Part shown: positions 10,336-50,420 of the stretch, piece by piece
Layout: every line of letters starts with the position of its first letter
Position numbering within the stretch: the first letter of the stretch is position 1
From: Escherichia coli
GTDB lineage: Bacteria > Pseudomonadota > Gammaproteobacteria > Enterobacterales > Enterobacteriaceae
NCBI RefSeq assembly: GCF_046105845.1
Contig: NZ_CP151004.1
Direction: 5' to 3' (one strand)
Length of the DNA: 64,000 nucleotides
Notes under the pieces: generated by a model
What the model saw: the letters and a program-made list of their open reading frames with translations, nothing else
What the model was told of the DNA's origin: nothing
Databases searched by the model: none
Translations under genes and position numbers: made by a program

Positions 10336-10986
10336 TCAGCGGCTGTCATTGCGCAGTCTGCGCTCCAGCTGCTGTTTGTCTTTTTTCACGCCACAGCGGG
10401 GATCGAGCTGTAACGCATGGTTGAGATGATTAAGGGCGGAAGCCGGATTGCTTTCACTCAGAACAGCGCCAATCGCTTTATGCAGACGCGCCCGTGACTG
10501 GTCCGGCATATCCAGACCGTCTGTCAGCTCCAGCGTCTGCAGCAACAGATCGGCATCAAAGCCGGTGGCGGCAAGCATTGCGCTCTGCGCTGCATCTGCC
10601 ATTTCCTCTGCCAGCACGGTCTGCACATTGCGGTTACCCAGCGGCATCACCCAGCCATGACGCAGGGCATGACGCCCGATCTCCAGCGCCCCGGCATAAT
10701 CTCCGGCATCAATACGCCACAGCATCACGTACATCAGCACGTCATCCTGTTGAGCGCCTCCGGCAGCCAGAACACCCTCCGCCCAGGCGGCGTACTTCGG
10801 CAGCAGCTCCACTTTGATTTCCGCTTTTTTGACCGTGGACTGAACGCCCTTGAGACGGCGTCGGTCTTCCGCCAGTTGCAGCAGCATCAGGTCATAGCCC
10901 GACGCGTGGCGAACGCTGCCGCCCTCGCGGGCGGCCTGTTCAGCCTGAACGCGCAGGCGATGCTGCCGTGCGGGACTCAGGCTCAT
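10336..10986 (-). CDS. M: Terminase small (endonuclease) subunit (P2 gpM-like)
   Basis: 216-aa ORF with ...DDVLMYVMLWRIDAGDYAGALEIGRHAL... motif. Confidence 0.85.
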   Translation of the reverse strand: MSLSPARQHRLRVQAEQAAREGGSVRHASGYDLMLLQLAEDRRRLKGVQSTVKKAEIKVELLPKYAAWAEGVLAAGGAQQDDVLMYVMLWRIDAGDYAGALEIGRHALRHGWVMPLGNRNVQTVLAEEMADAAQSAMLAATGFDADLLLQTLELTDGLDMPDQSRARLHKAIGAVLSESNPASALNHLNHALQLDPRCGVKKDKQQLERRLRNDSR

Positions 10987-13037: not shown

Positions 13038-14804
13038 ATGAACACCACACTAACACCCGCAGATCTCGATCCCCGTCGGCAGGCCATGCTGCTGTACTTT
13101 CAGGGATACCGCGTAGCCCGCATTGCTGAAATGCTGGGCGAGAAAGTTGCAACCGTTCACAGCTGGAAAAAACGCGACAAGTGGAGTGACTATGGGCCGC
13201 TGGATCAGATGCAGCTCACCACCGCCGCACGCTACTGCCAGCTCATTATGAAGGAGCACAAAGAAGGGAAAGATTTCAAAGAGATTGACCTGCTGGCGCG
13301 CCAGTCGGAGCGCCATGCGCGGATCGGCAAGTTTAACAATGGCGGCAACGAAGCCGACTTAAACCCTAACGTTGCCAACCGCAACAAAGGCCCGCGCCGT
13401 CAGCCGGAAAAGAACGTTTTCACCGATGAACAGATTGAGAAGCTGGAAGAAATCTTCCATTCCTCCATGTTCAACTACCAGCGCCACTGGTGGGAAGCCG
13501 GAAAAACCAACCGCATCCGCAACCTGCTGAAGTCACGCCAGATCGGCGCGACCTTCTATTTTGCCCGTGAAGCCCTGATTGACGCCCTGCTAACCGGGCG
13601 TAACCAGATTTTCCTTTCCGCCAGCAAGGCACAGGCCCACGTCTTTAAGCAGTACATCATCGACTTCGCCAAAGAAGTGGAGGTGGAGCTGAAAGGCGAT
13701 CCGATGGTGCTTCCTAACGGGGCCACGCTGTACTTCCTCGGCACCAATGCCCGCACGGCCCAGAGTTACCACGGCAACCTGTATCTGGATGAATATTTCT
13801 GGATACCGAAATTCCAGGAGCTGCGCAAAGTGGCTTCCGGTATGGCTATTCACAAGAAATGGCGACAGACCTATTTTTCCACGCCATCCAGTCTGACACA
13901 CAGTGCTTATCCGTTCTGGTCCGGTGCGCTGTTCAACCGTGGGCGCAACAGAGCCGATAAGGTGGACATCGACCTGTCCCACAGCAATCTGGCCCCCGGC
14001 CTGCTGTGCGCAGACGGGCAATACCGCCAGATAGTCACCGTGGAAGATGCGGTGCGCGGCGGCTGTAACCTGTTCGACCTTGACCAGTTGCGCATGGAGT
14101 ACAGCCCTGACGAATACCAGAACTTGCTGATGTGCGAGTTCGTGGACGATCTCGCGTCCGTGTTCCCGCTCAGCGAATTGCAGGCGTGCATGGTGGACAG
14201 CTGGGAAGTCTGGACCGACTTTCATGCACTGGCCCTGCGCCCGTTTGGCTGGCGCGAAGTGTGGATCGGTTATGACCCGGCAAAAGGTACGCAGAACGGC
14301 GACAGCGCCGGATGCGTGGTGGTGGCACCGCCAGCCGTGCCAGGCGGTAAGTTCCGCATTCTTGAGCGTCACCAGTGGCGCGGAATGGACTTTCGCGCCC
14401 AGGCTGACGCCATCAAAAAACTGACCGAACAGTACAACGTGACCTATATCGGCATCGACTCAACCGGCGTTGGTCACGGGGTTTACGAGAACGTGAAAGC
14501 GTTTTTTCCTGCCGTCCGGGAGTTTGTCTACAACCCCAACGTTAAAAACGCCCTGGTACTCAAGGCCTACGACATTATCAGCCACCGCCGTCTTGAGTTT
14601 GACGCCGGGCACACCGACATTGCGCAGTCATTCATGGCAATCCGTCGCGCCACCACCGCCAGCGGCAACCGCCCGACCTATGAAGCCAGCCGCAGCGAAG
14701 AAGCCAGCCATGCCGATCTGGCCTGGGCAACAATGCACGCACTGTTTAACGAACCACTGCAGGGCGAGTCCGCCAATACCAGCAATATTGTGGAGATTTT
14801 TTGA
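13038..14804 (+). CDS. P: Terminase large (ATPase) subunit (P2 gpP-like)
   Basis: 588-aa ORF MNTTLTPADLDPRRQAMLLYFQGYRVARIAEMLGEK... Confidence 0.9.
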   Translation: MNTTLTPADLDPRRQAMLLYFQGYRVARIAEMLGEKVATVHSWKKRDKWSDYGPLDQMQLTTAARYCQLIMKEHKEGKDFKEIDLLARQSERHARIGKFNNGGNEADLNPNVANRNKGPRRQPEKNVFTDEQIEKLEEIFHSSMFNYQRHWWEAGKTNRIRNLLKSRQIGATFYFAREALIDALLTGRNQIFLSASKAQAHVFKQYIIDFAKEVEVELKGDPMVLPNGATLYFLGTNARTAQSYHGNLYLDEYFWIPKFQELRKVASGMAIHKKWRQTYFSTPSSLTHSAYPFWSGALFNRGRNRADKVDIDLSHSNLAPGLLCADGQYRQIVTVEDAVRGGCNLFDLDQLRMEYSPDEYQNLLMCEFVDDLASVFPLSELQACMVDSWEVWTDFHALALRPFGWREVWIGYDPAKGTQNGDSAGCVVVAPPAVPGGKFRILERHQWRGMDFRAQADAIKKLTEQYNVTYIGIDSTGVGHGVYENVKAFFPAVREFVYNPNVKNALVLKAYDIISHRRLEFDAGHTDIAQSFMAIRRATTASGNRPTYEASRSEEASHADLAWATMHALFNEPLQGESANTSNIVEIF

Positions 14805-15832
14805 TGGGAAAGAGTAAGAAGAACCGCGCTGCGGCGACGAAACAGATCCAGCATAAAAACCAGACTTCAGCCGAAGCATTCAGCTTCGGTGATCCCGTTC
14901 CTGTTCTGGACCGCCGCGAACTGCTGGACTATGTGGAATGCGTACAGATGGACCGTTGGTATGAGCCACCAGTGAGTTTCGACGGCCTGGCGCGAACCTT
15001 CCGCGCCGCCGTACACCACAGCTCACCGATTGCAGTAAAGTGCAACATTCTGACCAGCACCTATATCCCTCACCCGTTGCTCAGCCAGCAGGCTTTTTCA
15101 CGTTTTGTGCAGGACTATCTGGTATTTGGTAATGCCTACCTGGAGAAACGCACGAACCGCTTCGGTGAAGTTATCGCCCTTGAACCTGCCCTGGCAAAAT
15201 ACACTCGACGCGGATTAGACCTGGATACCTACTGGTTTGTGCAATACGGTATGGCAACCCAGCCGTATCAGTTCACGAAAGGCAGCATCTTTCATCTGAT
15301 GGAACCGGATATTAATCAGGAGATCTACGGCCTGCCTGGCTATCTTTCTGCTATTCCATCCGCTCTGCTCAACGAGTCCGCCACGCTGTTCCGCCGGAAG
15401 TATTACATTAACGGCAGTCATGCAGGCTTCATCATGTACATGACCGATGCCGCGCAAAACCAGGAAGATGTGAACAACCTCCGCAACGCGATGAAAAGCG
15501 CCAAAGGTCCGGGCAATTTCCGCAACCTGTTTATGTACTCGCCTAACGGCAAAAAAGATGGCATTCAGATTATCCCGTTATCGGAAGTCGCGGCGAAGGA
15601 TGAGTTTTTGAATATCAAGAACGTGAGCCGGGACGACATGATGGCAGCACACCGTGTGCCGCCACAAATGATGGGGATTATGCCTAATAATGTTGGGGGA
15701 TTTGGGGATGTGGAGAAGGCGAGCTTGGTCTTTGTTCGTAATGAACTGATTCCTTTACAAAAAAGACTGATGGAAGTAAATGTCTGGCTCAATGAAGAAG
15801 TGATTGTATTCAATAGATACATTTTAGAGTAA
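14804..15832 (+). CDS. Q: Portal protein (P2 gpQ-like)
   Basis: 343-aa ORF; ATG at 14804 overlaps the P stop (TGATG); ORF track start 14801 is a TTG. Confidence 0.9.
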   Translation: MGKSKKNRAAATKQIQHKNQTSAEAFSFGDPVPVLDRRELLDYVECVQMDRWYEPPVSFDGLARTFRAAVHHSSPIAVKCNILTSTYIPHPLLSQQAFSRFVQDYLVFGNAYLEKRTNRFGEVIALEPALAKYTRRGLDLDTYWFVQYGMATQPYQFTKGSIFHLMEPDINQEIYGLPGYLSAIPSALLNESATLFRRKYYINGSHAGFIMYMTDAAQNQEDVNNLRNAMKSAKGPGNFRNLFMYSPNGKKDGIQIIPLSEVAAKDEFLNIKNVSRDDMMAAHRVPPQMMGIMPNNVGGFGDVEKASLVFVRNELIPLQKRLMEVNVWLNEEVIVFNRYILE

Positions 15833-15860
15833 AAAAATGGGCACCATGAGGTGCCCAAGT
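15831..15860. terminator. Hairpin terminator between the convergent portal and NTPase genes
   Basis: GGGCACC-atga-GGTGCCC stem-loop (15839-15856) flanked by an A7 run, which reads as a U-run for the minus-strand transcript. Confidence 0.5.
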
Positions 15861-15862
15861 TG

Positions 15863-17287
15863 TTACTTACGTGTTTCAACTATATTCAGCCCCTTATAAA
15901 GGCTTTGATGGATATATACAGAACCAGTATTTGGCAACATTAAATCAGCATCTTCACATCGGAATCTAGCCGTACCGGAATTGCCCAACCGGACACCAAT
16001 CACAGAAGCATTAAATAGAGTTTTCATCAATTCACGAGAAGTATAGCGCTTACAAAGGTCAGGCGCTTTCTCTTCAATCTTACTGATGAATTCTTCTGTA
16101 GAATTATATCTATGCTGCGTCTGACGTAAAGATTCCAATAGCTCACCAAAATGAGGGTAGAGCCTTTTGTATTCTTGTTTTAAGTCCTCAACTTTCCAAG
16201 CGCTGTACCGTTCTTCAGCTATTCTAATTATATCCTTTTTTATTTCAGAAGCATTAGCATCACAGCGTTTTTGGCATTCTTGCAAAAACTGAATAACTTC
16301 TCTTGGGCGCAAAAATGTGCGCTTCACCAAATAGTTAAACGGTGAAATACTCCCTCTCATTTCACCTTCCTCAAAAATATCATCTATAGTTATATTTTCC
16401 GGCAATCTGGCGTTCACCATATCTTTCAACAACTCTGGTGTCCAGATTATTTCTTCTTCAATTGCTCGGTGTTTATCTTTATCATCAAATTCCAGCCCTT
16501 GATAAATATCAGAGCGTAAAAATGTTACAATATGAATACCTTTGGCTCTAGTATCAGAATAACTATCATTAATATCTTTTGTTGCCTTCAACAAGCCAAT
16601 CAAAAGGCTTTTGGCATCATCCGATCCATCCCAAGAATCATCTAATCGATCAGTGGCAATTAGCACCCCAATATCTGTACAAATTTCTTTAAGCTCGTCA
16701 AGGATGATTTTTATTATTTGAGGTGTCAATGGTGCTTGCGAAGCATCCTTATTAAACCCCACAGCATATCCGAAAGCCTCAAAATTGAATGAACTTAATC
16801 CCGAGAGTAACTTCCTTGCAGTTCCCAAAGTAGTTGGCGATATACCACCATAGTTATCAGAAACAAATTTTTTAATTCTAGCAAGGGCCTCCCGAGGTCT
16901 TTTCTCTGAAAATTGCCTACCTGACCTAATAATTTCTGCCGCAGCCTCAACAGCTATTGCAAATTTCCAAGCATTACAATGTGCCTGTTCGGGTAACAAC
17001 CCTTGCTCTTGATATTGTTTTAATGCTCCCCAAGCATACTGGTCTGGGGTCATGACATTTACGATAACGTCCTGCCCATATTTTGCTCTTACCAACCTTG
17101 GGAGTTGGGTAAAGATGGATGATTTCCCAGCCCCCTTTCTTCCAAGAAAATGGGCACTATAGAAACTCAGAGCTTGCTCAACTTGAGGAGTATTGATGAA
17201 ATAATCAGCCAACCTTCTATCAGCTTCAGCATCGACAGTACCAAAGTTGAGTCCCTTAACTGTAAGGCCTAACGCATCTAACCGCAC
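15863..17287 (-). CDS. P-loop NTPase, divergent KAP-like (candidate anti-phage or accessory gene)
   Basis: 474-aa ORF with GTG start and AAGGA RBS; Walker A FLGRKGAGKSSIF; Walker B-like VLIATDRLDDSW; visibly AT-rich compared with flanking late genes; lies between the cos-like site and Q. Confidence 0.75.
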   Translation of the reverse strand: MRLDALGLTVKGLNFGTVDAEADRRLADYFINTPQVEQALSFYSAHFLGRKGAGKSSIFTQLPRLVRAKYGQDVIVNVMTPDQYAWGALKQYQEQGLLPEQAHCNAWKFAIAVEAAAEIIRSGRQFSEKRPREALARIKKFVSDNYGGISPTTLGTARKLLSGLSSFNFEAFGYAVGFNKDASQAPLTPQIIKIILDELKEICTDIGVLIATDRLDDSWDGSDDAKSLLIGLLKATKDINDSYSDTRAKGIHIVTFLRSDIYQGLEFDDKDKHRAIEEEIIWTPELLKDMVNARLPENITIDDIFEEGEMRGSISPFNYLVKRTFLRPREVIQFLQECQKRCDANASEIKKDIIRIAEERYSAWKVEDLKQEYKRLYPHFGELLESLRQTQHRYNSTEEFISKIEEKAPDLCKRYTSRELMKTLFNASVIGVRLGNSGTARFRCEDADLMLPNTGSVYIHQSLYKGLNIVETRK

Positions 17288-17374
17288 GATAATTCCTTAA
17301 TTGGTAAACTAAATTTGAACTTGATGCCAACAAAGATAATATCAATTTAATTAAAAAGAAAGCTGTTGCGCGCG

Positions 17375-17393
17375 CTCGTATCCCCGCCACGCC
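17375..17393 (-). other. cos-like cohesive-end site (P2/186 type)
   Basis: Minus-strand reading GGCGTGGCGGGGATACGAG; first 13 nt match my recollection of the 186 cos (GGCGTGGCGGGGAAAGCAT); flanked by repeated TTTCATGCA motifs. Confidence 0.5.
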
Positions 17394-17772
17394 TGCCCGC
17401 TTTATGCAGTGGTTTTCATGCACATGCATGACATGAGCAAAAGCCCGCCAGTTCTGGCGGATCTGAGCAAAGACGATCCTCAATCGATCATGCGATTTCA
17501 TGCAGCATAGTCATGCACTGTCAAAGAAGTAAAAATCCGTATCTGAATGGCCACTTGAAAAACGGATCATACGGGTTTACAAAGATGAATGTTCGCTGTG
17601 AACGGGAAGCGGAAGTTAACTTTCAGATAACATAATCCATATGCACGAGAACCTCTAAAATAGAATGGGACACCTAAGCGGGGTACTTACAACGATTCTT
17701 TCCATATTCACAGTTAACACTCTGTTTGGCGTATTTTTATTCAAATAGCAAACACCAATAAAAGGAGTTTCC

Positions 17773-18108
17773 ATGAACAATATTCCCCCTATACCACAGT
17801 TAGGAATTTATGTCTCAAAAATCGATCCCACCCTACGTATCACTGTAACCGATGTTGATATTGTTGATGGTGAGGATGATTCTCCTGATGATGAATTGTT
17901 TTATTTAGTCCACTGGATCGAGGGGGAAGATGAAAGTGATATGACAGCAATGGGATTTGAGCTAGACCCAGTAGAGTGGCAGGCTTTCGTTGAATCTGAG
18001 CAATTAGTGTTTGAGCGTGATCCGTACATGGATTCAATCCCCGAAAATTCAAACTTGGCAAAGATTCGGGATTTTCTCATGAAGACTAAACAGAATGATC
18101 ATTCGTAA
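17773..18108 (+). CDS. Small highly acidic hypothetical protein
   Basis: 111-aa ORF with strong AAGGAG RBS; Asp/Glu-rich (VDIVDGEDDSPDDELF, IEGEDESDM). Confidence 0.6.
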   Translation: MNNIPPIPQLGIYVSKIDPTLRITVTDVDIVDGEDDSPDDELFYLVHWIEGEDESDMTAMGFELDPVEWQAFVESEQLVFERDPYMDSIPENSNLAKIRDFLMKTKQNDHS

Positions 18109-18300
18109 GTGTAAGCATCCATCAGGAAAATGGTTTTGTAAGTGAATCATCAACTTTTAGAGAGTCTCAGACACTCCCACTTCTGCTTCTGACACAAAGC
18201 GGACGATCACTTATCAAAATAACCGCCCACCTTACGCCTTATTTCACTCATTGCCCAAACTAGCCCCCATCAGAATGAATCCTCCTGGGGGCAACATTTC

Positions 18301-18534
18301 TTAATGCAGCCAGCTGTCGTCCTCCCACACCTTCTGCATAATTTTCATCACTTGTTTTCTTTCTTCATCCAGTTGCAGTCCGGTTAGTTCCACACCGTTA
18401 GAGCTACCTTTGCGAATGCGAATTACCGTTTTGGGATACAGGGGGCGCAGATTGCGGTAAAGCTCGGATTCAAGGGCGTCCAGGGTAGACTGGCTAATCT
18501 TCTGCTCTTTATCGATCATTATTTCAATGCGCAT
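18301..18534 (-). CDS. DinI-family protein (186 Tum-like SOS antirepressor, C-terminal module)
   Basis: MRIEIMIDKEQKISQSTLDALESELYRNLRPLYP...KIMQKVWEDDSWLH aligns with the DinI fold; ORF track extends it to 18606 in the same frame. Confidence 0.7.
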   Translation of the reverse strand: MRIEIMIDKEQKISQSTLDALESELYRNLRPLYPKTVIRIRKGSSNGVELTGLQLDEERKQVMKIMQKVWEDDSWLH

Positions 18535-18544
18535 AAAAGTCACC

Positions 18545-18733
18545 TCAGCTGATGACATCCATTGAGCGGTTGTATTCGTGGCTTCTGATTTTTGCCATGA
18601 GTTCATCAGTCAATTCAGAAACCCACTGCAGAGCCAGCCCCTTCTCTTCATCACTACACTCACTAGCCGCTACAAGCTTAAGAAAAAAATCAATGCGCTG
18701 GAGCTTCAAAGACTCCAAAAAATAGTCCTGCAT
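18545..18733 (-). CDS. Small hypothetical protein, first gene of the LexA-boxed operon
   Basis: 62-aa ORF directly downstream of the LexA box, upstream of the DinI-like ORF, in a different frame. Confidence 0.5.
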   Translation of the reverse strand: MQDYFLESLKLQRIDFFLKLVAASECSDEEKGLALQWVSELTDELMAKIRSHEYNRSMDVIS

Positions 18734-18764
18734 CTTTCCTCCTATAACACCAAAACAATACTGT

Positions 18765-18780
18765 ACACATAACCACTGTT
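18765..18780. promoter_or_regulatory. LexA (SOS) box
   Basis: CTGTTTATATTTACAG, a perfect CTGT-N8-ACAG box about 30 bp upstream of the 18733 start. Confidence 0.6.
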
Positions 18781-18885
18781 TATATTTACAGTATATAATA
18801 ATCTTACTGATGTAAAACGTTTTTTTACGTTCATCGGCCTGATATGCCTGGTATTATTAAGAGCACGAATTGTTAACCCGCGTAA

Positions 18886-21300
18886 TTAATATAGGTTCCG
18901 CCACTTATCATCTTCCTTCAGACGCTGGTTCCGATAGAAGATACGCAGGCCTGCTCCTGACGGAATACTGCCGCCGCGAAGGAGCAAATCGACTTCTTTC
19001 TCGCTGCCATCAAATCCCCTGGACTTCAGTTCATAGACGAGCTGCTGTCGCTGATGGTCTGTAATTCGCTGTTTGTAGTCTTTACGCCGTTTCGGTTTCA
19101 CCTGGCGTAACCTTGCAGCCAGTTCCCGGCGCTCTTTTTTGCTCATACTGTGCAGGTAATCGTGCAACTCCTTGTCATTCATACGGGTAATATCCGTTCT
19201 GGAGTCCGCATCAGCTGATTTGTCTTTCCCTTGTTGGTTCAAATTTTCAGCAAGGGGACAGTTATTGCCACGAGTCCAAGGGGCGCAAGCGCCCTGGTCG
19301 GCTGCCGCCTCCTGAACGTCAACGACCTTACGAACCATTTTCCATTTCATTGCATGAGTGCAGATCTTGCCCTGTACAATGGGTGACCAGATGCCATAAA
19401 TACGAATACCGTGATCGCCATAAGCGGTCGGCTCTTCGTTAATTTCATAAGCTGTTCTGATAAGGTGATATTTGCGGGGAACCAGTACGCCGCCCTGCTT
19501 CATGATGTAGGTGGCAAAACAGCCAGCATCAGCGGCAGCCAGGATGGCATCAAGGCGCGGGTCATCCAGTACCGGCGCACCTGCTTTTTTGTCACCCTGT
19601 TGCCTTGCCGCCTGACCAGCCAGCAAGCGAAGTTCACGGTACGCCTGACGCCCCGGAATACCAAAGAAGCGGAACTGCTGAACACGATGCAGAGACGCCC
19701 AGGCATTAACGTATTCGGCGTTATCACGCAGGGATTTACCCGTTTCCTTGCTGATCTCGCCAGCCAGACCACGTCCGTCAATGTTCTTACTGATGTATTT
19801 CGCGATGTAGCTTGTCGGCGTTCCTTTGCGCGGGTTTATCAGCTCAGACTTAAAGCGTGGACCCGTGTTATTGCCCAGTTCCTCGCGGTCTTCACGGATG
19901 GCAAACTTACGCAACAATGCAGTAATGGCGCGGCGGTCTTTTTTGCGCATGAAACACATGAGATGCCAGTGCACAGTACCGTCATGGTGCGGCTCAGCCA
20001 CCCGCACGCCATACCAGCGCAACCCGGCTTTGTGCATAGCCTTACGAAATGCAGCAAACATGCCGACCAGATAATCGCTGCTTTGTCTTACCGTCGCATT
20101 TGTCCAGGTTGGGTTTGGTCTGCCGTTATTGAGCGTAGAATGGAAACGTGACGGACAGGTAATGGTGTAGAAAACGGCGCAGTCACCACGCATTTCCGCG
20201 ATAAGCTCCAGACCTTTAACACAGGCCATCATCTCATTGCGGCGGTGCGCCGGGTTGCTGCTGCTGGCGTTTACCACGTCTTCCATATCCAGCGTGTCGC
20301 CGTCTTCGTTCACCAGTTCATGAGAACGGAAAAACTCCAGCGACTTGCGGCGCTGCTCACGTTTATGCGTCACTGCTTCATAGCTGACATAGGGAGATGC
20401 TTTTTTGCTGACCAGGCAGACAGCACGCAACTGCTCTTCCCGCCATTCGCAACGTATCTTCCACAATTTTCGATACCACCAGTCGGCGCAAAGCATACGT
20501 GCCAGCGAACCCGGTATGAGTTCATAGGGCACGGGTTTGCGGCGGTTTCTTTTCCGACGGAGTTTCTCAAACGCAGGCGGGATAACATCCAGACGCAGGG
20601 TTTCCGCTGCCACCTTTTCCCATGTCTTGCGGATTTCTTCTGGCTTAACGTCATCGGTGGCATACAAATCACCACAAGCGGCCTCAAGACACATGCTCAT
20701 ATGCGCTGCTACCAAGGTGGACAGGCGTTTTACCTGATCCTGACTCATTTCAGGCAGGATCAGCAGGCCCTCAAGCCCTTGATGGCTTGCCATAAAACGG
20801 AAAGAAGCGGATAGCTGACTGTCGCGTACATACTCCAGTCGCTCCAGACATGACTTAATCGTCTCACGCAAATAGCGGGAATAAGCCTTTGGCCTGCCCA
20901 GGCTGCTGAAGTATTCGATACGTTGCATCAGCGGCTTGCTGATGTGGGTGGGCTGGGCGCTGACGTCCGCCAGAATGACCATGTCCGGGTTAAAACGCTG
21001 CTGCTCATGCGCCAGCTTTGCCCGACTAATGAGATTATCCTGCTCCATTTCGCGCTGGACAGGATCACGGGATTCATTAAAGAAATAACGCTCCCAGACC
21101 TGCTCACTCAGTGCATCGCGGCGCAGCTGTTCCTGCTCGTTATCGGCAGCGTACAGAGTGATCATGTTTGAAAGTGCAGACTCCGGCGCAACTTCCGCCG
21201 GGTCCAGATAAGGGTTAATGGCCTTTTTCGGGCCGTTCCATGAAAATGCTGCAGCGGCCTCGTTAAAGCCGCTAGAGTTGCTCATATCATCATGACTCAT
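18886..21300 (-). CDS. A: Replication initiation endonuclease (P2 gpA-like, rolling circle)
   Basis: 804-aa ORF, characteristic size and position. Confidence 0.85.
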
Positions 21301-22154
21301 ACACGCACCTCGTACACAGCAGAACTATCCACGCCACGCGAAGGATCAAATCCCACCCAGCAGCGCGCCCCGGAAACAGCAATGATTTCTGTTGCAGATT
21401 TACTCTCGCCAGCCGACACGCCGATGCTGCGTTTTGCCTTGATGTAGTGGTGAGTGAAATTGCGATACAGCGAACGAATCAGGGATGTGTCACTGTTAGA
21501 AACAATGACCGGATGACCTTCAGATGATCGATGTTCAAGAACGGATGCCAGGTGATACTGGTCATCCTCAGTGAAGCCATCAGTGTGATAGCCGGAAAAC
21601 GTACCGTCATAAGGCGGATCGCAATACACCACATCCCCCGCCTTCAACATCGCCAGCGTTTCATCAAAGCTGGCGCAGATAAACGTTGCTCGCTGGGCTT
21701 TTTCTGCAAATTTGCGAATTTCTTTTTCAGGGAAATACGGATTTTTATAATTCCCGTAGGGAATGTTGAAATGCCCGCTCTTGTTATAGCGACATAACCC
21801 ACGGTAACCATGACGATTGAGATACAGGAAATATACCGCTTTCATGAAATCAGTAATTTCAGTGGAGTAATTAAACTCCTGCCTTATGTTGTAATAAGCC
21901 ACCTCCCTGTTTGCTTCCTCAAATAAAGCTCTGGCACGAGATATAAACGCCTCGCAATCAGCAGCAACCTTTTTATAGAGGTTGATTAAATCAGGATTAA
22001 TATCCGCAACAAGATAGCTGGGGTAATCCGTCTCTATCATCACAGCACAAGAACCCGCGAAAGGTTCAACCAGTCGCGGGCCAGCAGGAAGGTATTTTTT
22101 CAGTTCTGGCATAATGGCGGTTTTATTACCCGCCCATTTCAGGATGGTGCTCAT
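21297..22154 (-). CDS. DNA adenine methyltransferase (Dam family)
   Basis: From internal start [11 protein letters not shown]...; motifs LVEPFAGS and DPPY; stop overlaps the A start. Confidence 0.85.
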
Positions 22155-22378
22155 ACAGCACCTCCGTTGTAATGTTTGCCTTTCAGCTCTGCGATTTCCT
22201 GACAGGTAATGCAAAGCTGCACACCCGGAATGGCGCGACGTCGTGCTGGCGGAATTGGTGCTTCACACTCAATGCAAAGCACGCGGGATACGCCCGGCGT
22301 TTTGGCGCGGGCAGCACGGATATGACGCTGGCGTTCTTCTTCAACGCGCTGCTGTACGAGATCCATTGCATCAGCCAT
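22151..22378 (-). CDS. DksA/TraR-type C4 zinc-finger protein
   Basis: 75 aa, CIECEAPIPPARRRAIPGVQLCITCQ. Confidence 0.7.
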   Translation of the reverse strand: MADAMDLVQQRVEEERQRHIRAARAKTPGVSRVLCIECEAPIPPARRRAIPGVQLCITCQEIAELKGKHYNGGAV

Positions 22379-23955: not shown

Positions 23956-24080
23956 GATGCAACATTCCTCGTTTAATGTTGATTAATCAGGACGAATACG
24001 GATCGTTTGTATTTTGTGAACATCATAAACATACGATCGCATAATGAAATCGTCAAGACAAAAGTTCACTTGGAGTGACC
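23956..24080. promoter_or_regulatory. Lysis-lysogeny switch region (face-to-face pR/pL type, inferred)
   Basis: ~120-bp AT-rich interval between divergent apl and cI with short repeats (ATACGGATCG / ATACGATCGC). Confidence 0.45.
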
Positions 24081-24650
24081 ATGAATTTGGAGAAAGGCGG
24101 ACGAGGCGCTATAGAGCGCATGGTAGAAGCATATGGCTTCAAGACTCGACAGGCGTTGTGCGATCACTTAGGAATCTCTAAAAGTACTCTCGCCACACGC
24201 TATATGCGTGACTCATTCCCTGCTGAATGGGTAATCCAGTGCGCACTTGAAACGGGCGCCTCGCTTAACTGGCTCACGACCGGACATGGTTCAAAGCAAA
24301 CTTCAGGTAATACAAATACTATGGAAGTCGTTAAATATGTATTATCTGATGGAACCTTGCAGGAAGATGGTTTTTATATTTTCGATAAAGAATTTCTACC
24401 ATCTACGCTCAAAAATCCGTTTGTAATCACCGATAACAATTCCGTTTTTATTTGCGATAAAGAGTTTAACGATATTCGTGACGGCAAATGGGTAATAAGT
24501 ATTGATGCCGAAGTAACAATCCGCGATATCACTCGTTTACCTGGTGGAAGAATCTTAGTTGAAGGTGGAAATAGGGCTTTCGAATGTAAAAAAGAAGAAA
24601 TCGAAATTATTGGAAAAATTATAAGCATAACAGTTAAGTACTTTGAGTAA
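24081..24650 (+). CDS. cI: Immunity repressor CI (186 type)
   Basis: ATG at 24081 after a GGAG RBS; ...IERMVEAYGFKTRQALCDHLGISKSTLATRYMRD..CALETGASLNWLTTG...ITRLPGG...FECK... Confidence 0.85.
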   Translation: MNLEKGGRGAIERMVEAYGFKTRQALCDHLGISKSTLATRYMRDSFPAEWVIQCALETGASLNWLTTGHGSKQTSGNTNTMEVVKYVLSDGTLQEDGFYIFDKEFLPSTLKNPFVITDNNSVFICDKEFNDIRDGKWVISIDAEVTIRDITRLPGGRILVEGGNRAFECKKEEIEIIGKIISITVKYFE

Positions 24651-24700
24651 TATAGGAATGTTTTTATGCTTGGTAAAGCATTTGTTGTGGTGTAAAAAAT

Positions 24701-25624
24701 ATGTCAACTCAAAAATTAAAATTTAGCCATATCAAAAACGATCTGAAAGCAATAGTTATGCAGAATCGTGGAGGGCAAAAAGTTATTGAGCGTATACTCC
24801 TAGCCTATGGCTTCAAGTCACGACAGGCATTATGTAATCATCTAGGTATTTCCCAAAGTACTATGGCCAACAGATATGCACGTAATACCTTTCCTGCAGA
24901 TTGGGTTGTTATATGTTCCATAGAAACAGGAGCATCAATTGAATGGTTAGTTCTTGGTTCAGATACTGCTCCTTCATCAGAGCAATATTCTGAAAAACAT
25001 GCCGTTAATGGCCTTTGCAATGAAGTATACATTCCCACTATAAAGTTCGATAATGAAAAACTCATGAATTTTAACCGAGGGGGTAAGGCAACAATAGAAC
25101 GAATTGTCGAGGCTTACGGTTACAAAACGCGCCAAGCATTAGCTGATCACCTAGGTATTTCAAAAAGCACATTAGCCACACGATACATGCGTGACATTTT
25201 TCCTGCAGACTGGGTTTTGCAGTGTGCAATAGAAACGGGCCATTCTATTGAATGGATTTCATTTGGTACAGGAGAAATGAAAAACACAAAAAATAAAGAT
25301 ACTTTAACATTAGTGAAAAAAGTATTAATCAATGGCAAGTTAATAAATGATGGCTCATATTTATTTGACCCATGCTTTCTACCTTCCAATTTAAAAAATG
25401 CATTCGTAGTATCTACCGAAGACTCTGAATTAATATGTGAAATGGGTTTTAAAGATGTACATGATGGTAAGTGGCTAGTAAATATTGATGGAGAGAATTC
25501 ATTTAGAATGATAACTCGACTACCTAAAGGACGAGTTTATATTTCATCCCAAAATCACTCTTTTGAATGTTCGCTTACAGACATTGAGTTTATTGCAAAA
25601 GTTATTATAAGTTGTTTACATTAA
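24701..25624 (+). CDS. CI paralogue with tandem duplicated N-terminal HTH domains plus a CI-like C-terminal domain
   Basis: 307 aa; residues ~22-90 and ~125-190 each resemble the CI N-domain (the second carries ISKSTLATRYMRD, identical to CI); C-terminal FECSLTDIEF region parallels the CI C-domain. Confidence 0.8.
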   Translation: MSTQKLKFSHIKNDLKAIVMQNRGGQKVIERILLAYGFKSRQALCNHLGISQSTMANRYARNTFPADWVVICSIETGASIEWLVLGSDTAPSSEQYSEKHAVNGLCNEVYIPTIKFDNEKLMNFNRGGKATIERIVEAYGYKTRQALADHLGISKSTLATRYMRDIFPADWVLQCAIETGHSIEWISFGTGEMKNTKNKDTLTLVKKVLINGKLINDGSYLFDPCFLPSNLKNAFVVSTEDSELICEMGFKDVHDGKWLVNIDGENSFRMITRLPKGRVYISSQNHSFECSLTDIEFIAKVIISCLH

Positions 25625-25649
25625 GTAAATTTTTCATGGAGACTTCATA

Positions 25650-27167
25650 GTGAAATGTGGTGATTGTAATTGGAACTGGGATGAAGAAACTACCTTTATA
25701 TTAGACGACGAAGAGGAAATTCTTTCCAAAGACAAACTTAATCGGAGACACTATGCAGAATATCTATATTTTTATCTTAAGGAAAAGGGGCAAAAGAACA
25801 ACACGGTAATCAACCTTAATGCAGAATGGGGAGCTGGTAAAAGTTTTTTCATAAAGAGATTTTATAACTCAATAAAAGATGCACACCCATGCGTTTACAT
25901 TGATGCCTGGAAGCAAGACTTTTCTGATGATGCATTTTTAACCCTTTTTTCTTCTTTGTCACAACAATTGCAAACATATGCAGGAAAACTTGATGCTCGA
26001 TTGATACAAAGCGGCCATGCTATCGGACGCTTTACAAAAGGTGTTCTACCTGAAATCATATCTGGCCTAATCAAGACTTATGCAGGAGTAGATAACGTAG
26101 GTGATATAGCCAAAGAAGCCTCATTAATAATGCTGAAGGAACACCAGGAAAAACTGAAGAGCATTAAGGTATTAAAAAAAGAACTAACGTTATGGTCTAG
26201 GTTGGCATATGAAAATAGTTTTTCATGTCCTATATTTATCTTTATAGATGAATTAGACAGATGCAGGCCAGATTATGCAATTTCTCTTTTAGAGATTGTT
26301 AAACATATATTCGATATTAAAAATTTTGTCTTTATTATTGCTACTGACACAGATCAATTACAACATTCAATCAAGAATGTTTACGGTAATGATTTTTCCG
26401 CAAATGACTATTTAGGCCGTTTTTTTCATAGAAGATTTACTTTAAAACAACCTGAACTTAAAGATTTAATTAATGGTGTTATTGGTGATTATATTGGTAC
26501 CGATTTTGAAAATATCACATCAAAAACATACCCACTAACAGCAACATTAGAAGACTTTTCAATAAATATTTCCAACGTATTTGAAGCATTTGGGTTAAAT
26601 CTAAGAGACTCAATCCGAAATACTGAAAGGTTAATAGACATTCTTAAATCTGATTTAGTCAAAAAGAAAGTAGATTATATTTTTATAATTTCGCTAATGA
26701 TTATATATGATAAGGATCGTCAAATTATAGATGGACTAATTGGTCGAAGAAATGCAGCACAACGTTTCACTGATTCGATAAAGCAAAGCTCCAATTTAAA
26801 AGGTGTTTCTCAAGCCATCCTTGAATTAAATCTTGATACAAATCAGCAAAGAATAGGTGTCAATTATATCTATAGAACGGCGAGCAGTAGATTATTCATC
26901 TCACAGATCGAGCCCAAAATAAATTTAACATTAATAAATTACTTAGATGTTGCATTGTATTTTATTAATAATATAAACATGCTTAAATCAAGTATAAAAA
27001 ACAATGGGCAAAATTCACTAATGATTATATCTCAACAAGGCCCTATTGATGGTGATACAGCTATAAAGTATTTGCAAGGAGCCCTTATAGAGAATGGTCT
27101 GAATACATCTTTTTATGCCTTACATAATTACATTGAATTAATTGAACTGGCCACATCATTTGATTAA
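25650..27167 (+). CDS. KAP-family P-loop NTPase
   Basis: 505 aa, GTG start with GGAGA RBS; NLNAEWGAGKSFF (Walker A), IDAWKQDFSDDAFLTLF, IFIFIDELDRCRPDYAISLLEIVKHIF (Walker B), all hallmark KAP motifs; AT-rich. Confidence 0.85.
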   Translation: MKCGDCNWNWDEETTFILDDEEEILSKDKLNRRHYAEYLYFYLKEKGQKNNTVINLNAEWGAGKSFFIKRFYNSIKDAHPCVYIDAWKQDFSDDAFLTLFSSLSQQLQTYAGKLDARLIQSGHAIGRFTKGVLPEIISGLIKTYAGVDNVGDIAKEASLIMLKEHQEKLKSIKVLKKELTLWSRLAYENSFSCPIFIFIDELDRCRPDYAISLLEIVKHIFDIKNFVFIIATDTDQLQHSIKNVYGNDFSANDYLGRFFHRRFTLKQPELKDLINGVIGDYIGTDFENITSKTYPLTATLEDFSINISNVFEAFGLNLRDSIRNTERLIDILKSDLVKKKVDYIFIISLMIIYDKDRQIIDGLIGRRNAAQRFTDSIKQSSNLKGVSQAILELNLDTNQQRIGVNYIYRTASSRLFISQIEPKINLTLINYLDVALYFINNINMLKSSIKNNGQNSLMIISQQGPIDGDTAIKYLQGALIENGLNTSFYALHNYIELIELATSFD

Positions 27168-27253: not shown

Positions 27254-28306
27254 ATGGCAGTACGAAAACTCACCACAGGAAAATGGCTTTGCGAATGTTA
27301 CCCCGCCGGACGTAGTGGGCGTCGTGTGCGTAAACAATTCGCCACCAAAGGCGAAGCACTGGCTTTTGAGCGTCACACGATGGAAGAAACCGAAGCAAAG
27401 CCCTGGCTGGGTGAATCAGTGGATCGTCGAACACTGAAAGACGTGGTTGAGCTATGGTTCAAACTACATGGTAAATCTCTGACTGCTGGGCAGCATGTCT
27501 ATGACAAATTGCTGCTGATGGTTGACGCTCTGGGCAATCCCCTTGCAACTGATCTAACCTCTAAAATGTTTGCCCACTATCGAGATAAACGCCTGACAGG
27601 TGAGATCTACTTCAGTGAGAAATGGAAGAAAGGAGCAAGCCCGGTCACCATTAACCTGGAGCAAAGCTATCTAAGTAGTGTTTTTAGCGAACTATCCCGC
27701 CTGGGCGAATGGTCGTATCCGAACCCACTGGAGAACATGCGAAAATTCACCATCGCAGAAAAAGAGATGGCATGGCTTACCCATGAGCAGATTGTTGAAT
27801 TACTAGCTGATTGCAAACGTCAGGACCCAATTCTGGCACTGGTAGTTAAGATATGCTTAAGCACAGGCGCACGCTGGCGAGAAGCCGTAAATCTTACCCG
27901 CTCACAGGTGACCAAATACCGAATTACCTTTGTAAGAACGAAGGGGAAGAAAAACAGAAGCATCCCTATCAGTAAAGAGCTTTACGAAGAGATCATGGCG
28001 CTTGATGGGTTCAATTTCTTCACAGACTGCTATTTTCAATTTTTATCCGTGATGGAAAAAACGTCTATCGTGCTCCCTCGCGGTCAACTCACACACGTTC
28101 TGCGCCATACGTTTGCGGCGCACTTCATGATGTCGGGTGGAAACATTCTGGCTTTACAAAAAATTCTCGGACACCACGATATAAAAATGACTATGCGTTA
28201 CGCACATCTGGCACCGGATCATCTGGAAACGGCGCTCCGTTTCAATCCTCTGGCAACGCTGCCAAGTGGCGACAAAGTGGCGGCAGCGGTTGGCATTACC
28301 CCGTAA
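27254..28306 (+). CDS. int: Tyrosine integrase (P2/186 Int family)
   Basis: 350 aa; C-terminal catalytic region ...HVLRHTFAAHFMMSGGNILALQKILGHHDIKMTMRYAHL. Confidence 0.9.
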   Translation: MAVRKLTTGKWLCECYPAGRSGRRVRKQFATKGEALAFERHTMEETEAKPWLGESVDRRTLKDVVELWFKLHGKSLTAGQHVYDKLLLMVDALGNPLATDLTSKMFAHYRDKRLTGEIYFSEKWKKGASPVTINLEQSYLSSVFSELSRLGEWSYPNPLENMRKFTIAEKEMAWLTHEQIVELLADCKRQDPILALVVKICLSTGARWREAVNLTRSQVTKYRITFVRTKGKKNRSIPISKELYEEIMALDGFNFFTDCYFQFLSVMEKTSIVLPRGQLTHVLRHTFAAHFMMSGGNILALQKILGHHDIKMTMRYAHLAPDHLETALRFNPLATLPSGDKVAAAVGITP

Positions 28307-43689: not shown

Positions 43690-44042
43690 ATGTTTTCGAA
43701 ATGGAAGGGTTTCTTCGCGGTAAATGTGTACCGCGAGATCTGAAAGTGAACGAAACAAATGCTGAGTACCTGGTACGTAAATTCGACGCGCTTGAAGCTA
43801 AATGTGCGGCACTGGAAAACAAAATAATACCAGTGTCAGCTGAACTGCCACCAGCAAATGAAAGTGTTCTGTTATTTGATGCTAACGGAGAAGGCTGGCT
43901 GATTGGCTGGCGTTCTCTCTGGTACACCTGGGGACAAAAAGAAACCGGAGAATGGCAGTGGACATTTCAGGTCGGGGACCTTGAAAACTTCAATATCACT
44001 CACTGGGCAGTAATGCCAAAAGCGCCGGAGGCTGGAGCATAA
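43680..44042 (+). CDS. YfdS-like hypothetical protein
   Basis: 120-aa ORF overlapping the previous stop; synteny. Confidence 0.55.
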   Translation: MRMNVFEMEGFLRGKCVPRDLKVNETNAEYLVRKFDALEAKCAALENKIIPVSAELPPANESVLLFDANGEGWLIGWRSLWYTWGQKETGEWQWTFQVGDLENFNITHWAVMPKAPEAGA

Positions 44043-44662
44043 TGACCACATTTACCAATAAAGAACTGATTAAAGAAATCAAAGAACGAATCAGCAGCCT
44101 AGAGGTTCGAGACGATATTGAGCGCCGTGCTTATGAAATTGCTCTGGCATCGCTAGAAGAGGAGCCGGTGGCATGGCTGCATTCAGAAAATGGCTTAGGT
44201 ATTCCGGCAATAACGAGGAGTAAAAACATTGCTGACAGTTGGTTATCAAAGGGCTGGTATGTTCAGCCGCTATATATAGCCAAGCCAGTGCCGGTGGTGC
44301 CAGATGCTCGTCCGTCTTTAAATAATGGCATAGTCGGCTTTGATGAAGGCTGGAACGCCTGCCGCGCCGCCATGCTTAATGGTGCCGAACCTGTAAGCCA
44401 GACTTACAAGTTGAACGAGCTGTCGGGCAACTCTCCGGTAACTCCGGATGGTTGGATAAGCTGTAGTGAGCGAATGCCGAACGATAAACAGTATGTTTGG
44501 TGTTGGGGTAAGTCTTACGGCTGGACTGAGTACGATACCTTCGAAGGGTATTACGATTGTTCGAGAAACAAATGGTGGGCAGTTACTGACAATGGGGAAG
44601 AACCGGCATCGAAAGTAACCCACTGGATGCCGCTACCGGAGCCGCCGCAGGAGGTGAAGTAA
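44042..44662 (+). CDS. DUF551-domain protein (YfdT-like)
   Basis: C-terminal ...DGWISCSERMP......THWMPLPEPP typical of DUF551. Confidence 0.7.
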   Translation: MTTFTNKELIKEIKERISSLEVRDDIERRAYEIALASLEEEPVAWLHSENGLGIPAITRSKNIADSWLSKGWYVQPLYIAKPVPVVPDARPSLNNGIVGFDEGWNACRAAMLNGAEPVSQTYKLNELSGNSPVTPDGWISCSERMPNDKQYVWCWGKSYGWTEYDTFEGYYDCSRNKWWAVTDNGEEPASKVTHWMPLPEPPQEVK

Positions 44663-44856
44663 TGAACAACTTAATGACAACTAAACAAGTCGCCGATTTC
44701 TGTGGTGTTTCAGTATCGACAGTTCTTCGCTGGAACAGCGTAAACAGGAGAACTGGCCAGAAATACAGGCCTGACTTTCCAGATCCTGATATTAAATCCT
44801 GCCCAAATAAATGGGCATCACACAAGATTTACAGATTTGCGGGAGTGATTGATTAA
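44662..44856 (+). CDS. AlpA/Xis-like excisionase HTH protein
   Basis: MNNLMTTKQVADFCGVSVSTVLRWNS..., MerR-type HTH, int-proximal. Confidence 0.6.
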   Translation: MNNLMTTKQVADFCGVSVSTVLRWNSVNRRTGQKYRPDFPDPDIKSCPNKWASHKIYRFAGVID

Positions 44857-45138
44857 TATGTATTAGCTTAGATGTGAGCTGACACATCTATGATTAGATG
44901 CCAAACCAAATCTGAGCGTCCACTCTTTAACAAGAGCGGACGTTACCAATGACCATATGACATGAATCGATAAGATCAAAACATTATCGCCAAGAAATGT
45001 CATACCATTGATACAAATAAAATTGATTACCCCCTTACTCTTGTTGAAAAGTTAGTCGTAGAGTACCTATCGCAATGTAATCAGCTTTAATCATCTGAAA
45101 ATTACTCCTTAAAAATTAGCTTTTATATACTGAACAAA

Positions 45139-45858
45139 TTAAATCTCTGTTTCTTTTCCTGTTCGGCTCAACCAATACTCCATTGTTTGAGTATGAATCT
45201 TTTCAGCGTATATTTTATCAATTAATTTATCTCGTTTTTCTTTAATGACTTTACGCAGTGAATCATATAACATAAAAAAACGTTCATCATCTTCCTCATT
45301 ATTACCATAATTTATTTGATTGAGTTCTGAAAAAATATGATAGCACCTTTTTTTCTTGGTCCCCGGCAATATTAAAACCAAGCCACATTGATCATATTCA
45401 AATTCACCTTTATGGGCAGCAAAGTTATGTCTAACATTCATAATAGAATCATGTAAATCTCTGTATTTTTCTGGCACATGCTTTCTCTGCAATGTGAATC
45501 GACGCCCTTTCGCCTCTGTAAAACACTTACCGTAAGTAACAACTTTTGATATAAATAAAGACTTTAATATTAGATTCTTTTCTAAATCAGGATAAATAAA
45601 GTGTTGTTCTCTATTAATGTTATTACAAATGTTTTTTATTATATTCTCCCAACCAATAACATTCCGAAGATCTTTATCCAGCAACTGTAAGGCCACATAT
45701 TGTTCTACAAAGCGGCCTTTTAAAGGTATTCGTGGTAATATTACACCTTTCTGCTTATAAACTCTTTCTATCGTATTATCTGGATATTGGATCTTCCTTA
45801 TTTCTATTCCGTCTTCTTCTGATACCCTTACTAATGGTTCATTTTTTAACTTTGACAT
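45139..45858 (-). CDS. AT-rich hypothetical protein between xis and int (candidate accessory or defence gene)
   Basis: 239-aa ORF in a very AT-rich stretch with GAGGG RBS and ATG at 45856-45858; no motif I recognise. Confidence 0.6.
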   Translation of the reverse strand: MSKLKNEPLVRVSEEDGIEIRKIQYPDNTIERVYKQKGVILPRIPLKGRFVEQYVALQLLDKDLRNVIGWENIIKNICNNINREQHFIYPDLEKNLILKSLFISKVVTYGKCFTEAKGRRFTLQRKHVPEKYRDLHDSIMNVRHNFAAHKGEFEYDQCGLVLILPGTKKKRCYHIFSELNQINYGNNEEDDERFFMLYDSLRKVIKEKRDKLIDKIYAEKIHTQTMEYWLSRTGKETEI

Positions 45859-46143
45859 GTTAACCCTCTTAAATAAAAAACTAACTTTATCCAGATAGTG
45901 TCCGTTAAGAAGTTTTCGTTACAACTAAGTTTCTAGGTAAATCATGAATCAACCTATAGTATCAAAAACATTTGGTGGTAAACATCTGCATTTATCAAAT
46001 AGCAGGAGCGATTTAGGGGCATAGGGATAGTGATGATATCTATACCCGTGCCCTCTTATGTCAACACAATGGCGTAAACTTAACGCTCACATCTCGCTCA
46101 AAGTGTGCTAGGAGATTTGGTTATGTTCAGGTGATACAAACCG

Positions 46144-47367: not shown

Positions 47368-47376
47368 TACTCACCT

Positions 47377-47433
47377 TGTACAAATCGCAAAACACCTCTG
47401 CTGCTTTGTACATTATGTACAAGCATATGTACA
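47377..47433. repeat. Cluster of four TGTACA hexamers upstream of int (possible arm or operator sites)
   Basis: TGTACA at 47377, 47407, 47416 and 47428. Confidence 0.4.
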
Positions 47434-47587
47434 GATTTTTGATGAAAGCAACCTGATCGATTTAAAGTTACATGAAAGAATTTTCAATTAAAGAAGCCAC
47501 ATAACTATATGTATTTAAATGAGTTATATAACCAGACCTCAATTAACTGAAAGGATTTTGAAAGAGTAAAAGAGCTTTAATTTGGGA

Positions 47588-47662
47588 TTAATTATTGGGG
47601 TGAGAAATAATGGCAAAAGTGCGGCGCTTCGCCACCTCTTGCAAATAAGGAGACAACGTCAT
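47588..47662 (-). pseudogene. prfC: prfC (peptide chain release factor 3) 5' fragment, truncated at the prophage junction
   Basis: Minus-strand ATG at 47660-47662; [22 protein letters not shown] then NN-stop; the host reading ...HPDAGKTT is lost at ~47597. Confidence 0.8.
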
Positions 47663-48430: not shown

Positions 48431-48444
48431 TATTCCACCTTGTC

Positions 48445-50407: not shown

Positions 50408-50420
50408 GTATCTGATATCT

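Follow-up and report, generated by a model that had tools for sequence, protein, structure and literature searches.

Where would the P2-family prophage carried by this stretch of Escherichia coli DNA be cut for packaging, and which bases around the cut make up the signal? The stretch that we analysed, 64,000 nucleotides in length, is referred to below as the window. An earlier reading, made from the letters alone, had proposed a cos-like site at 17375-17500, with a cohesive end that resembles the one of phage 186 and with flanking repeats that might bind the terminase. Here we follow up this sequence-only reading by comparing the site with those of related phages, prophages and viral contigs, including relatives whose DNA ends have been annotated or mapped.

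Gene order around the candidate site

The genes that frame the site are listed below in the order of their coordinates.

10336..10986, minus strand: gpM, small terminase, the expected cos-recognition subunit (PF05944)
13038..14804, plus strand: gpP, large terminase, the expected cos cutter; it combines an ATPase domain with an RNaseH-like nuclease domain (PF03237, PF17289, PF06056)
14801..15832, plus strand: gpQ, portal protein gene (PF04860)
15863..17287, minus strand: cargo gene for a 474-aa P-loop ATPase of the Sll1717 family (Walker A motif GRKGAGKS; NF047389)
17773..18108, plus strand: A-side cargo ORF for a 111-aa acidic protein, transcribed away from cos (GC content ~39-40%)
18301-18606, minus strand: DinI/Tum-like gene (PF06183)
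18886..21300, minus strand: gpA, replication endonuclease, conserved right-hand boundary of the hotspot (PF05840)

The genes gpM, gpP, gpQ, gpN, gpO and gpL are intact and adjoin the site, with gpL, gpM, gpN and gpO on the minus strand and gpP and gpQ on the plus strand; both cognate terminase subunits, gpM and gpP, are encoded on the same element as cos. Beyond gpA there follow genes for a Dam methylase, CII, two CI-like proteins, a KAP NTPase and an integrase.

The local order gpA (minus), DinI (minus), cos, cargo, Q (plus), P (plus) mirrors the P2 map, and the strand that begins with GGCG reads toward Q. On a larger scale, the succession int ... CI ... A - cos - Q P O N M L is that of an integrated P2-type genome, which bears out the permuted prophage expected earlier. 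Likewise, the gene at 15863-17287, said to sit between cos and Q, is indeed found there and encodes the 474-aa P-loop ATPase. An Rfam scan of 17000-18900 gave no match, and a scan of 17200-18400 for sigma-70 promoters found none.

A sharply bounded cos module

Read on the minus strand from 17393 to 17375, the window gives exactly the 19-nt sequence GGCGTGGCGGGGATACGAG that had been claimed for this position. It has a single match in the 64-kb window, even when up to 3 mismatches are allowed. The annotated cos of phage 186 is GGCGTGGCGGGGAAAGCAT (NC_001317, 1-19) and that of P2 is GGCGAGGCGGGGAAAGCAC (NC_001895, 1-19); GGCGTGGCGGGGATACGAG is identical to them at 15/19 and 14/19 positions, respectively. 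The 13-nt identity to the 186 cohesive end, put forward earlier, holds against the annotated sequence: the first 13 nt are the same, and only the last 6 differ (TACGAG in the window, AAGCAT in 186). The 19-mer also has the 19-nt, GC-rich form GGCG(A/T)GGCGGGGA...... of P2-family cohesive ends. By analogy with P2 and 186, staggered nicks at both of its borders would leave 5'-protruding ends of 19 nt.

The limits of the signal emerge from a conservation profile anchored on this 19-mer, built from 122 unique sequences out of at least 120 IMG/VR contigs that contain it exactly. Conservation stands at 80-100% from relative position -126 to +25 (17519..17368) and falls to a random 30-40% immediately beyond. 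The conserved cos module is thus a sharply bounded stretch of 152 bp at 17368-17519; the span proposed earlier, 17375-17500, falls inside it but is too short. A distant blastn search of 50,697 phage records delineates nearly the same island, window positions 17363-17519, which is 83-92% conserved in 83-93 P2-family phages of Klebsiella, Salmonella, Escherichia and Yersinia, with unrelated sequence on both flanks. The module is also present, with the same boundaries, in 1264/5426 complete E. coli genomes.

Wherever the flanks are long enough, the IMG/VR contigs with the 19-mer (at least 120) have gpA upstream of it and gpQ downstream on the opposite strand. None of these contigs begins or ends at the 19-mer, the collection being comparative material and not evidence on DNA ends.

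On the minus strand, which is the orientation of the P2 map with Q downstream, the module is composed of the following parts.

17489..17519, minus strand: distal triple repeat GTGCATG-N5-CTGCATG-N5-CGCATG, with a spacing of 12 + 11 bp; A-side edge of the module
17474..17489, minus strand: direct repeat GATCG-N6-GATCG, each unit with a Dam site; one more GATC at 17460-17463
17438..17461, minus strand: GC-rich dyad or hairpin (T)CCGCCAG-AA-CTGGCGG(G) followed by CTTTTG, terminator-like
17416..17431, minus strand: proximal palindrome TCATGCA-TG-TGCATGA, consensus TCATGCAGGTGCATGA
17394..17415, minus strand: cos-proximal stretch AAAACCACTGCATAAAGCGGGCA, abutting the cut site, defined from the alignments
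17375..17393, minus strand: 19-nt cohesive end GGCGTGGCGGGGATACGAG, the cosN equivalent; unique in the window and identical to the cos of E. coli HS and of phage SEN8
17368..17374, minus strand: CGCGCGC, directly after the cohesive end on the Q side; last conserved element in the 122 unique sequences

Past the 19-mer, conservation on the Q side is therefore limited to the 7 nt of CGCGCGC; the rest of the module extends toward gpA.

There are three copies of the 9-mer TTTCATGCA in the window: two on the plus strand of the module, at 17414-17422 and 17496-17504, and one at 14220. Of the two copies placed earlier at about 17412 and about 17487, both exist, the second being some 9 nt away from where it was put. 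They are complements of TGCATGAAA: the copy at 17414-17422 belongs to the proximal palindrome element, and that at 17496-17504 to the middle unit of the distal triple repeat. As a count, the 9-mer is not significant, with 3 copies in the window against 1.4 expected and 15/100 shuffles reaching 3. The shorter ATGCA, on the other hand, is found 5 times in the 152-bp module, where 0.16 copies would be expected (Poisson 8e-7); nowhere else in the window does it cluster so densely. The further CATGCA repeats noticed earlier are also real: plus-strand copies lie at 17417, 17423, 17499 and 17512, making up 4 of the 13 in the window.

Across the family, it is GCATG/TGCAT and not the 9-mer that is the conserved unit. 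Good candidates for contacts with the small terminase are the palindrome and the GCATG repeats, whose spacing is close to one helical turn. Conservation is likewise what suggests a role for the repeats, the dyad and the GATC pair as a whole. At least two GATC sites are kept in ~111/117 related loci; among the loci with long flanks, the pair shows no strict correlation with a Dam gene on the same contig (33 loci with Dam, 15 without).

An identical 19-mer in E. coli HS and in phage SEN8

The closest experimental parallel comes from the prophage of E. coli HS named 'phage 1'. Its cos was reported as 5'-GGCGTGGCGGGGATACGAG-3' at 926016-926034; the prophage had been induced with mitomycin C, and the ends were mapped with PhageTerm and from the start sites of reads (Zünd et al. 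2021, Microbiome 9:77, PMC8008629, Suppl. Table 4). In NC_009800 we confirmed the 19-mer at these very coordinates, flanked by a DinI-like gene and cargo on one side and by a cargo gene and the portal gene on the other.

The packaging proteins of the HS prophage are almost the same as those of the window: 586/588 residues are identical in the large terminase gpP (99.7%), 215/216 in the small terminase gpM (99.5%) and 321/343 in the portal, the counterpart of gpQ. The two modules share 132/152 positions (87%), and their 20 differences are located mostly in the dyad flanks and the spacers. In both prophages cos lies between gpA/DinI and gpQ, whereas the cargo is unrelated on both of its sides; next to Q, HS encodes a 463-aa hypothetical protein where the window has the Sll1717-family ATPase. 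The mapping of virion ends after induction, suggested earlier as a check, is therefore available for a prophage with the identical 19-mer and a virtually identical terminase, and the site in the window is very probably a functional cos.

Phage records agree with this assignment. The genome announcement of Salmonella phage SEN8, a Felsduovirus, prints the identical 19-mer as cos (PMC5427200), and the SEN8 record opens with the same 19-mer, annotated as 'putative cos site'. The alignment of the right end of SEN8 with the window stops exactly at 17394, directly next to the 19-mer. Its module is 91% identical to that of the window and has the same position between gpA/DinI and gpQ, with a different Q-side cargo, namely a hypothetical protein and an HNH endonuclease in place of the Sll1717-family ATPase. 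In phage Cartapus, too, the stretch homologous to the site in the window is annotated as cos.

From the family architecture, the position and the identity of the 19-mer to the mapped HS end, the earlier proposal of a cos gains strong support. We conclude that 17368-17519 is very probably the functional cos module of a Fels-2-like (Felsduovirus/Kapieceevirus-type) P2-family prophage in the E. coli chromosome. As such, this cos is already known, the identical 19-mer having been published and experimentally mapped. Its correct location fixes the ends of the virion chromosome and brings nothing new on packaging itself. What the present comparison adds is modest: limits of the 152-bp module at the level of single bases, a Q-side breakpoint at its edge and a lineage-specific, conserved pair of GATC sites.

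Comparison with P2, 186, P4 and lambda

We aligned with MAFFT nine cos regions: those of the window, SEN8, Cartapus, Fels-2, SopEphi, a Klebsiella phage, a Yersinia phage, 186 and P2. Alignment with P2 and 186, put forward earlier as a check of the proposal, reveals collinear elements that are oriented alike with respect to gpA and gpQ. The ends of P4, compared separately, have the same layout as the module of the window. In terms of identity to the latter, the module stands at 67% in 186, 63% in P2 and 68% in P4. Both hallmarks of a P2-family cos, a right arm with TGCAT repeats and a core shared with P4, are found in the window.

The resemblance is closest around the cut. In 186 and PSP3 (Eganvirus), the cohesive end, with its first 13 nt the same as in the window, is preceded by CATAAAG(C/T)GGGCA and followed by (T/C)GCGCGC, as in the window; in P2 and P4 it is preceded by AAAACC...AAGCGGGC and again followed by (T/C)GCGCGC, likewise as in the window. 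At the place of CGCGCGC, P4 has this same heptamer, whereas P2 and 186 have TGCGCGC. The elements AAAACC and AAAG(C/T)GGGC(A/G) of the cos-proximal stretch are common to the window and all three of P2, 186 and P4.

Farther out, the elements of the gpA-side arm recur with more variation. Three distal (T)GCAT(G) repeats occur in P2, 186 and P4 at the same distance from cos as in the window, and P2 and P4 also have one or two proximal TGCAT repeats on the right arm. In 186 and P4, TGCAACTGCAT occupies the position of the window palindrome. The TGCAT repeats and the CGCCAG..CTGGCG dyad of 186 and PSP3 stand at the distances seen in the window. P2 is devoid of the GC dyad, while 186 and P4 have it at the same place but without the T-run. 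There is no GATC in the cos regions of P2, 186 and P4, in contrast to the pair in the window.

The surroundings of cos are comparable in outline. As in the window, cos of P2 and P4 lies between the right-end accessory genes and Q; P2, however, has its cargo (old, tin) on the A side of cos only, while the window has cargo on both sides. In 186 and PSP3, a gene-free gap of ~177 bp separates cos from the portal stop, compared to 1542 bp and a cargo gene in the window. A tblastn search with the C-terminal fragment of P4 Psu, covering the loci with the 19-mer, found no P4-like satellite with the cos type of the window. The functional cos of P2 and P4, with 19-nt 5' ends GGCGAGGCGGGGAAAGCAC, was reportedly defined by Ziermann and Calendar in 1990.

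Phage lambda offers a more distant parallel. In lambda cos, staggered nicks made by the large terminase yield 5' cohesive ends, and a repeat array on one side is the likely loading site of the small terminase. Lambda cos (cosQ-cosN-cosB) has no sequence similarity to that of the window, and its overhang is 12 nt long instead of 19 nt. By analogy, the cos of the window may nonetheless work in a like manner, through nicking and a one-sided, asymmetric repeat array for the small terminase.

Alternative explanations

The gpA-side elements could also be read as transcription elements that do not bind the terminase, with only a core of ~55 bp acting as the packaging signal. In a more specific version, the dyad would be a terminator that shields cos and the Q-side cargo from read-through of gpA/DinI, and GCATG would bind a regulator or a host factor. 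We hold the general form, and equally the specific one, to be unlikely, although either deserves some weight. The dyad with its CTTTTG does score as terminator-like on the minus strand, the strand of the A, DinI and cargo genes; the T-run after it is conserved within the lineage, and citing papers describe the cos common to P2 and P4 as a conserved core of 55 bp. Yet the equivalent dyads of 186 and P4 lack the T-run, and the RNA fold of the dyad in the window, at -13.3 kcal/mol, is unremarkable, no better than that of shuffles (z-score -0.98). Pairing is kept in 86% of alignment cells, against 31-53% in shifted registers, with few double compensations; the dyad is thus conserved mostly at the level of sequence, and whether this reflects a structure or a protein-binding site is ambiguous. 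The three distal repeats, for their part, are equidistant from cos in P2, 186 and P4 despite unrelated genes next to it (old, orf97 and psu), which speaks for a role linked to cos rather than to local transcription. Moreover, the satellite P4 has only the cos region in common with its helpers (Rousset et al. 2022, PMC9122126).

A different doubt concerns not the elements but the prophage: cos could be intact in sequence and still be a dead relic in a defective, non-packaging prophage. On its left side (tail, D, ogr, attR), the prophage extends beyond the window, and P2-like prophages of laboratory E. coli B derivatives, for example that of C43(DE3), have the same module and the same A-side flank; the prophages of such derivatives are often regarded as cryptic. 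Against this, the adjoining packaging and head genes are full length and hardly differ from their counterparts in HS, whose prophage is inducible; functional relatives have essentially the same 19-mer and proximal 45 nt, and replication, repressor and integrase genes are present, so that we give a relic only a small chance. We put still less faith in the conserved island being a small gene and not a DNA site, either a small RNA or the 81-aa ORF at 17256-17501 (minus strand). This ORF spans the region from an ATG start, and several phage records annotate short hypothetical CDSs on the homologous stretch. Conservation, however, ends at 17368 in the middle of the ORF and begins 18 nt upstream of its ATG, there is no match in Pfam or Rfam, and the region agrees to the base with cos ends known from annotation and from experimental mapping; as the boundaries of conservation do not track the ORF, we rejected it as a gene. 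That the likeness to the 186 and P2 cohesive ends is a chance similarity of GC-rich sequences has a negligible probability. A degenerate 13-mer with one mismatch does appear in 12/100 shuffles, but the full GGCGTGGCGGGGATACGAG in 0/100, and coincidence would not account for ~150 bp of flanking sequence that align collinearly, for the conserved synteny or for the mapped site of identical sequence; shuffles, alignment, conservation profile and the mapped HS end together rule it out.

Proposed packaging of the prophage DNA

For a functional cos module, we propose a course of events whose steps are those established for P2, 186 and cos phages in general. After excision and replication of the prophage, gpM would recognise the asymmetric gpA-side arm with its GCATG repeats, dyad and palindrome, and would then recruit gpP. 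The RNaseH-like nuclease domain of gpP would nick the DNA twice, 19 nt apart, at the borders of GGCGTGGCGGGGATACGAG. The expected product, a linear DNA of unit length, would have 5' overhangs of 19 nt as its cohesive ends and would be pumped through the portal formed by gpQ. The substrate may not be the same as in lambda: P2 terminase is said to use monomeric circles (Pruss and Calendar; Bowden and Modrich), whereas lambda packages from concatemers.

With its limits set at the level of single bases, the module could guide the design of minimal cosmids as well as tests of recombination at cos ends.

Cargo genes and the breakpoint at the edge of cos

The 474-aa gene has a GTG start preceded by an AAGGA Shine-Dalgarno sequence and is followed on the minus strand by a terminator, made of a hairpin at 15842-15859 and a T7 run. 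Its product scores 284 bits against NCBIfam NF047389 (cutoff 75), with residues 15-467 on profile positions 1-454/454, and PGAP likewise names a 99.7%-identical copy P-loop ATPase of the Sll1717 family. The score against NCBIfam DS41_1_antiphage stays below threshold (25.9 bits, cutoff 370). Neither Pfam nor PADLOC gave a match for the 474-aa and 111-aa cargo proteins, the DNA of the 474-aa gene matched nothing in the phage collection, and a literature search on Sll1717 and DS-41 brought up nothing relevant. The 111-aa ORF is annotated as hypothetical or as DUF8087 in RefSeq E. coli genomes. The GC content of the 474-aa gene is 36-43%, compared to 53-57% in the phage core.

It is usual for the Fels-2-like lineage, and no oddity, that a gene lies between cos and Q. 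In 91 IMG/VR loci, cos and the Q stop are separated by 160 to 4242 bp (median 1548 bp), against 1542 bp in the window; between the A stop and cos there are 477 to 4789 bp in the IMG/VR loci. The genes between cos and Q are all different in Fels-2, SopEphi, SEN8, Cartapus and the Klebsiella phages. The particular cargo of the window is rare: a homologue of the 474-aa gene was found in 1/120 IMG/VR loci, and the whole arrangement in 1/5426 complete E. coli genomes, where the record concerned bears the label plasmid pE100181_149.

In the published description of the cos-proximal hotspot of P2-like phages, 18,150 E. coli loci fell into 1,650 arrangements (Rousset et al. 2022, PMC9122126). Judged by its sequence, with variable, low-GC genes between gpA and gpQ, the cargo of the window sits in this known anti-phage hotspot. 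The Sll1717-family ATPase gene is accordingly exchangeable cargo that lies outside the packaging signal; its location in the hotspot makes it a reasonable candidate for an anti-phage gene.

How sharply this cargo is set off from cos becomes clear in the closest prophages. In many E. coli prophages, the A-side cargo and the entire cos module match the window at 99-100% identity, and the homology breaks at 17366-17368, 0-2 nt past CGCGCGC (matches to genomes end at 17368 +/- 3). The break is 7-9 nt away from the predicted nick, and it is there that the Sll1717-family ATPase cargo starts. This Q-side boundary falls on the same base in ~1260 E. coli genomes and in the 122 IMG/VR variants.

Because the Q-side breakpoint abuts cos, it is conceivable that the cos cut serves as an entry point for recombination and drives the turnover of cargo, which would fit the speculation of Rousset et al. 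2022 (PMC9122126) on cohesive ends as recombination substrates. We raise this idea tentatively and are inclined to doubt it; if true, cos would be a precise 'hinge' for the exchange of defence cargo. The same doubtful standing applies to a separate idea, in which the GATC pair and the phage Dam would modulate the use of cos. In phage P1, Dam modulates the use of pac. Finally, with the DNA cut at the predicted position, the Sll1717-family ATPase gene would occupy the extreme left end of the packaged DNA.

Cargo exchange next to the cohesive end

From about position 18300 through the entire cos module (the conserved 152 bp at 17368-17519 of this Fels-2-like P2-family prophage), many E. coli prophages match the window at 99-100% identity; they diverge from it 0-2 nt past CGCGCGC, the last conserved element on the Q side. 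The match ends at 17368 ± 3 for nearly all of the ~1260 E. coli matches. We place the cargo-swap breakpoint where this identity ends, just 7-9 nt away from where cos is predicted to be nicked. Features flanking or overlapping cos are as follows:

15863-17287 (-): Sll1717-family P-loop ATPase gene, cargo between cos and Q
17256-17501 (-): 81-aa ORF with an ATG start, overlapping the cos module
17366-17368: cargo-swap breakpoint
17460-17489: three GATC sites inside the cos module, including the conserved GATCG-N6-GATCG
17773-18108 (+): 111-aa ORF on the gpA side of cos, transcribed away from it

On the Q side, the cargo ATPase gene is of low GC content and has a terminator of its own. Its product gives a full-length match to NF047389 (284 bits), no match in Pfam or PADLOC, and only sub-threshold similarity to the NCBIfam anti-phage model DS41_1. 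Among 5426 complete E. coli genomes, just one has the gene at the cos-Q position, as does a single locus (L096, 91.6% amino-acid identity) out of 120 IMG/VR contigs carrying the exact cos 19-mer. We regard it as a candidate defence gene within the known P2 hotspot, the cos-proximal cargo region between gpA and gpQ.

The only E. coli record among the 5426 genomes to share the cos-cargo arrangement of the window is L136 (NZ_JBRERE010000002.1, 128251-142718; 99.7% identical). As its replicon is labelled a circular plasmid, the 149.8-kb pE100181_149, this implies either that a P2-like prophage is inserted in a large plasmid or that the replicon was mis-assigned.

The gpA-side ORF encodes a very acidic protein with no match in Pfam, PADLOC or NCBIfam, annotated in RefSeq as DUF8087 or hypothetical; 100% identical copies occur in many E. 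coli prophages. Over cos itself, stretches homologous to the 81-aa ORF are annotated as 'hypothetical protein' in several phage records. Since the conservation boundaries at cos do not follow this ORF, such annotations are probably spurious.

GATC sites in the cos module

At least two GATC sites are retained in ~111 of 117 related loci, notwithstanding spacer differences, whereas the cos regions of P2, 186 and P4 contain none. The same prophage encodes a Dam methylase:

21297-22214: Dam methylase gene

Strict co-occurrence of the GATC pair and the Dam gene was not found across contigs.

A second cargo position

Near the integrase, the same prophage probably has a second cargo or defence position:

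24075-27167 (+): CI-repressor-like tandem pair and KAP NTPase gene
27254-28306: integrase gene, immediately downstream of the KAP NTPase gene

The tandem CI-like genes encode proteins of 191 aa and 307 aa, the latter with its HTH domain duplicated; the gene after them encodes a KAP-family P-loop NTPase of 505 aa (PF07693) that weakly matches QatA.

Elsewhere in the window, a second integrase and phage-like genes at 44000-51000, adjoining yjjG, are unrelated to the P2-like prophage. Three tRNA-Leu(CAG) genes stand in tandem at 50607-50929.
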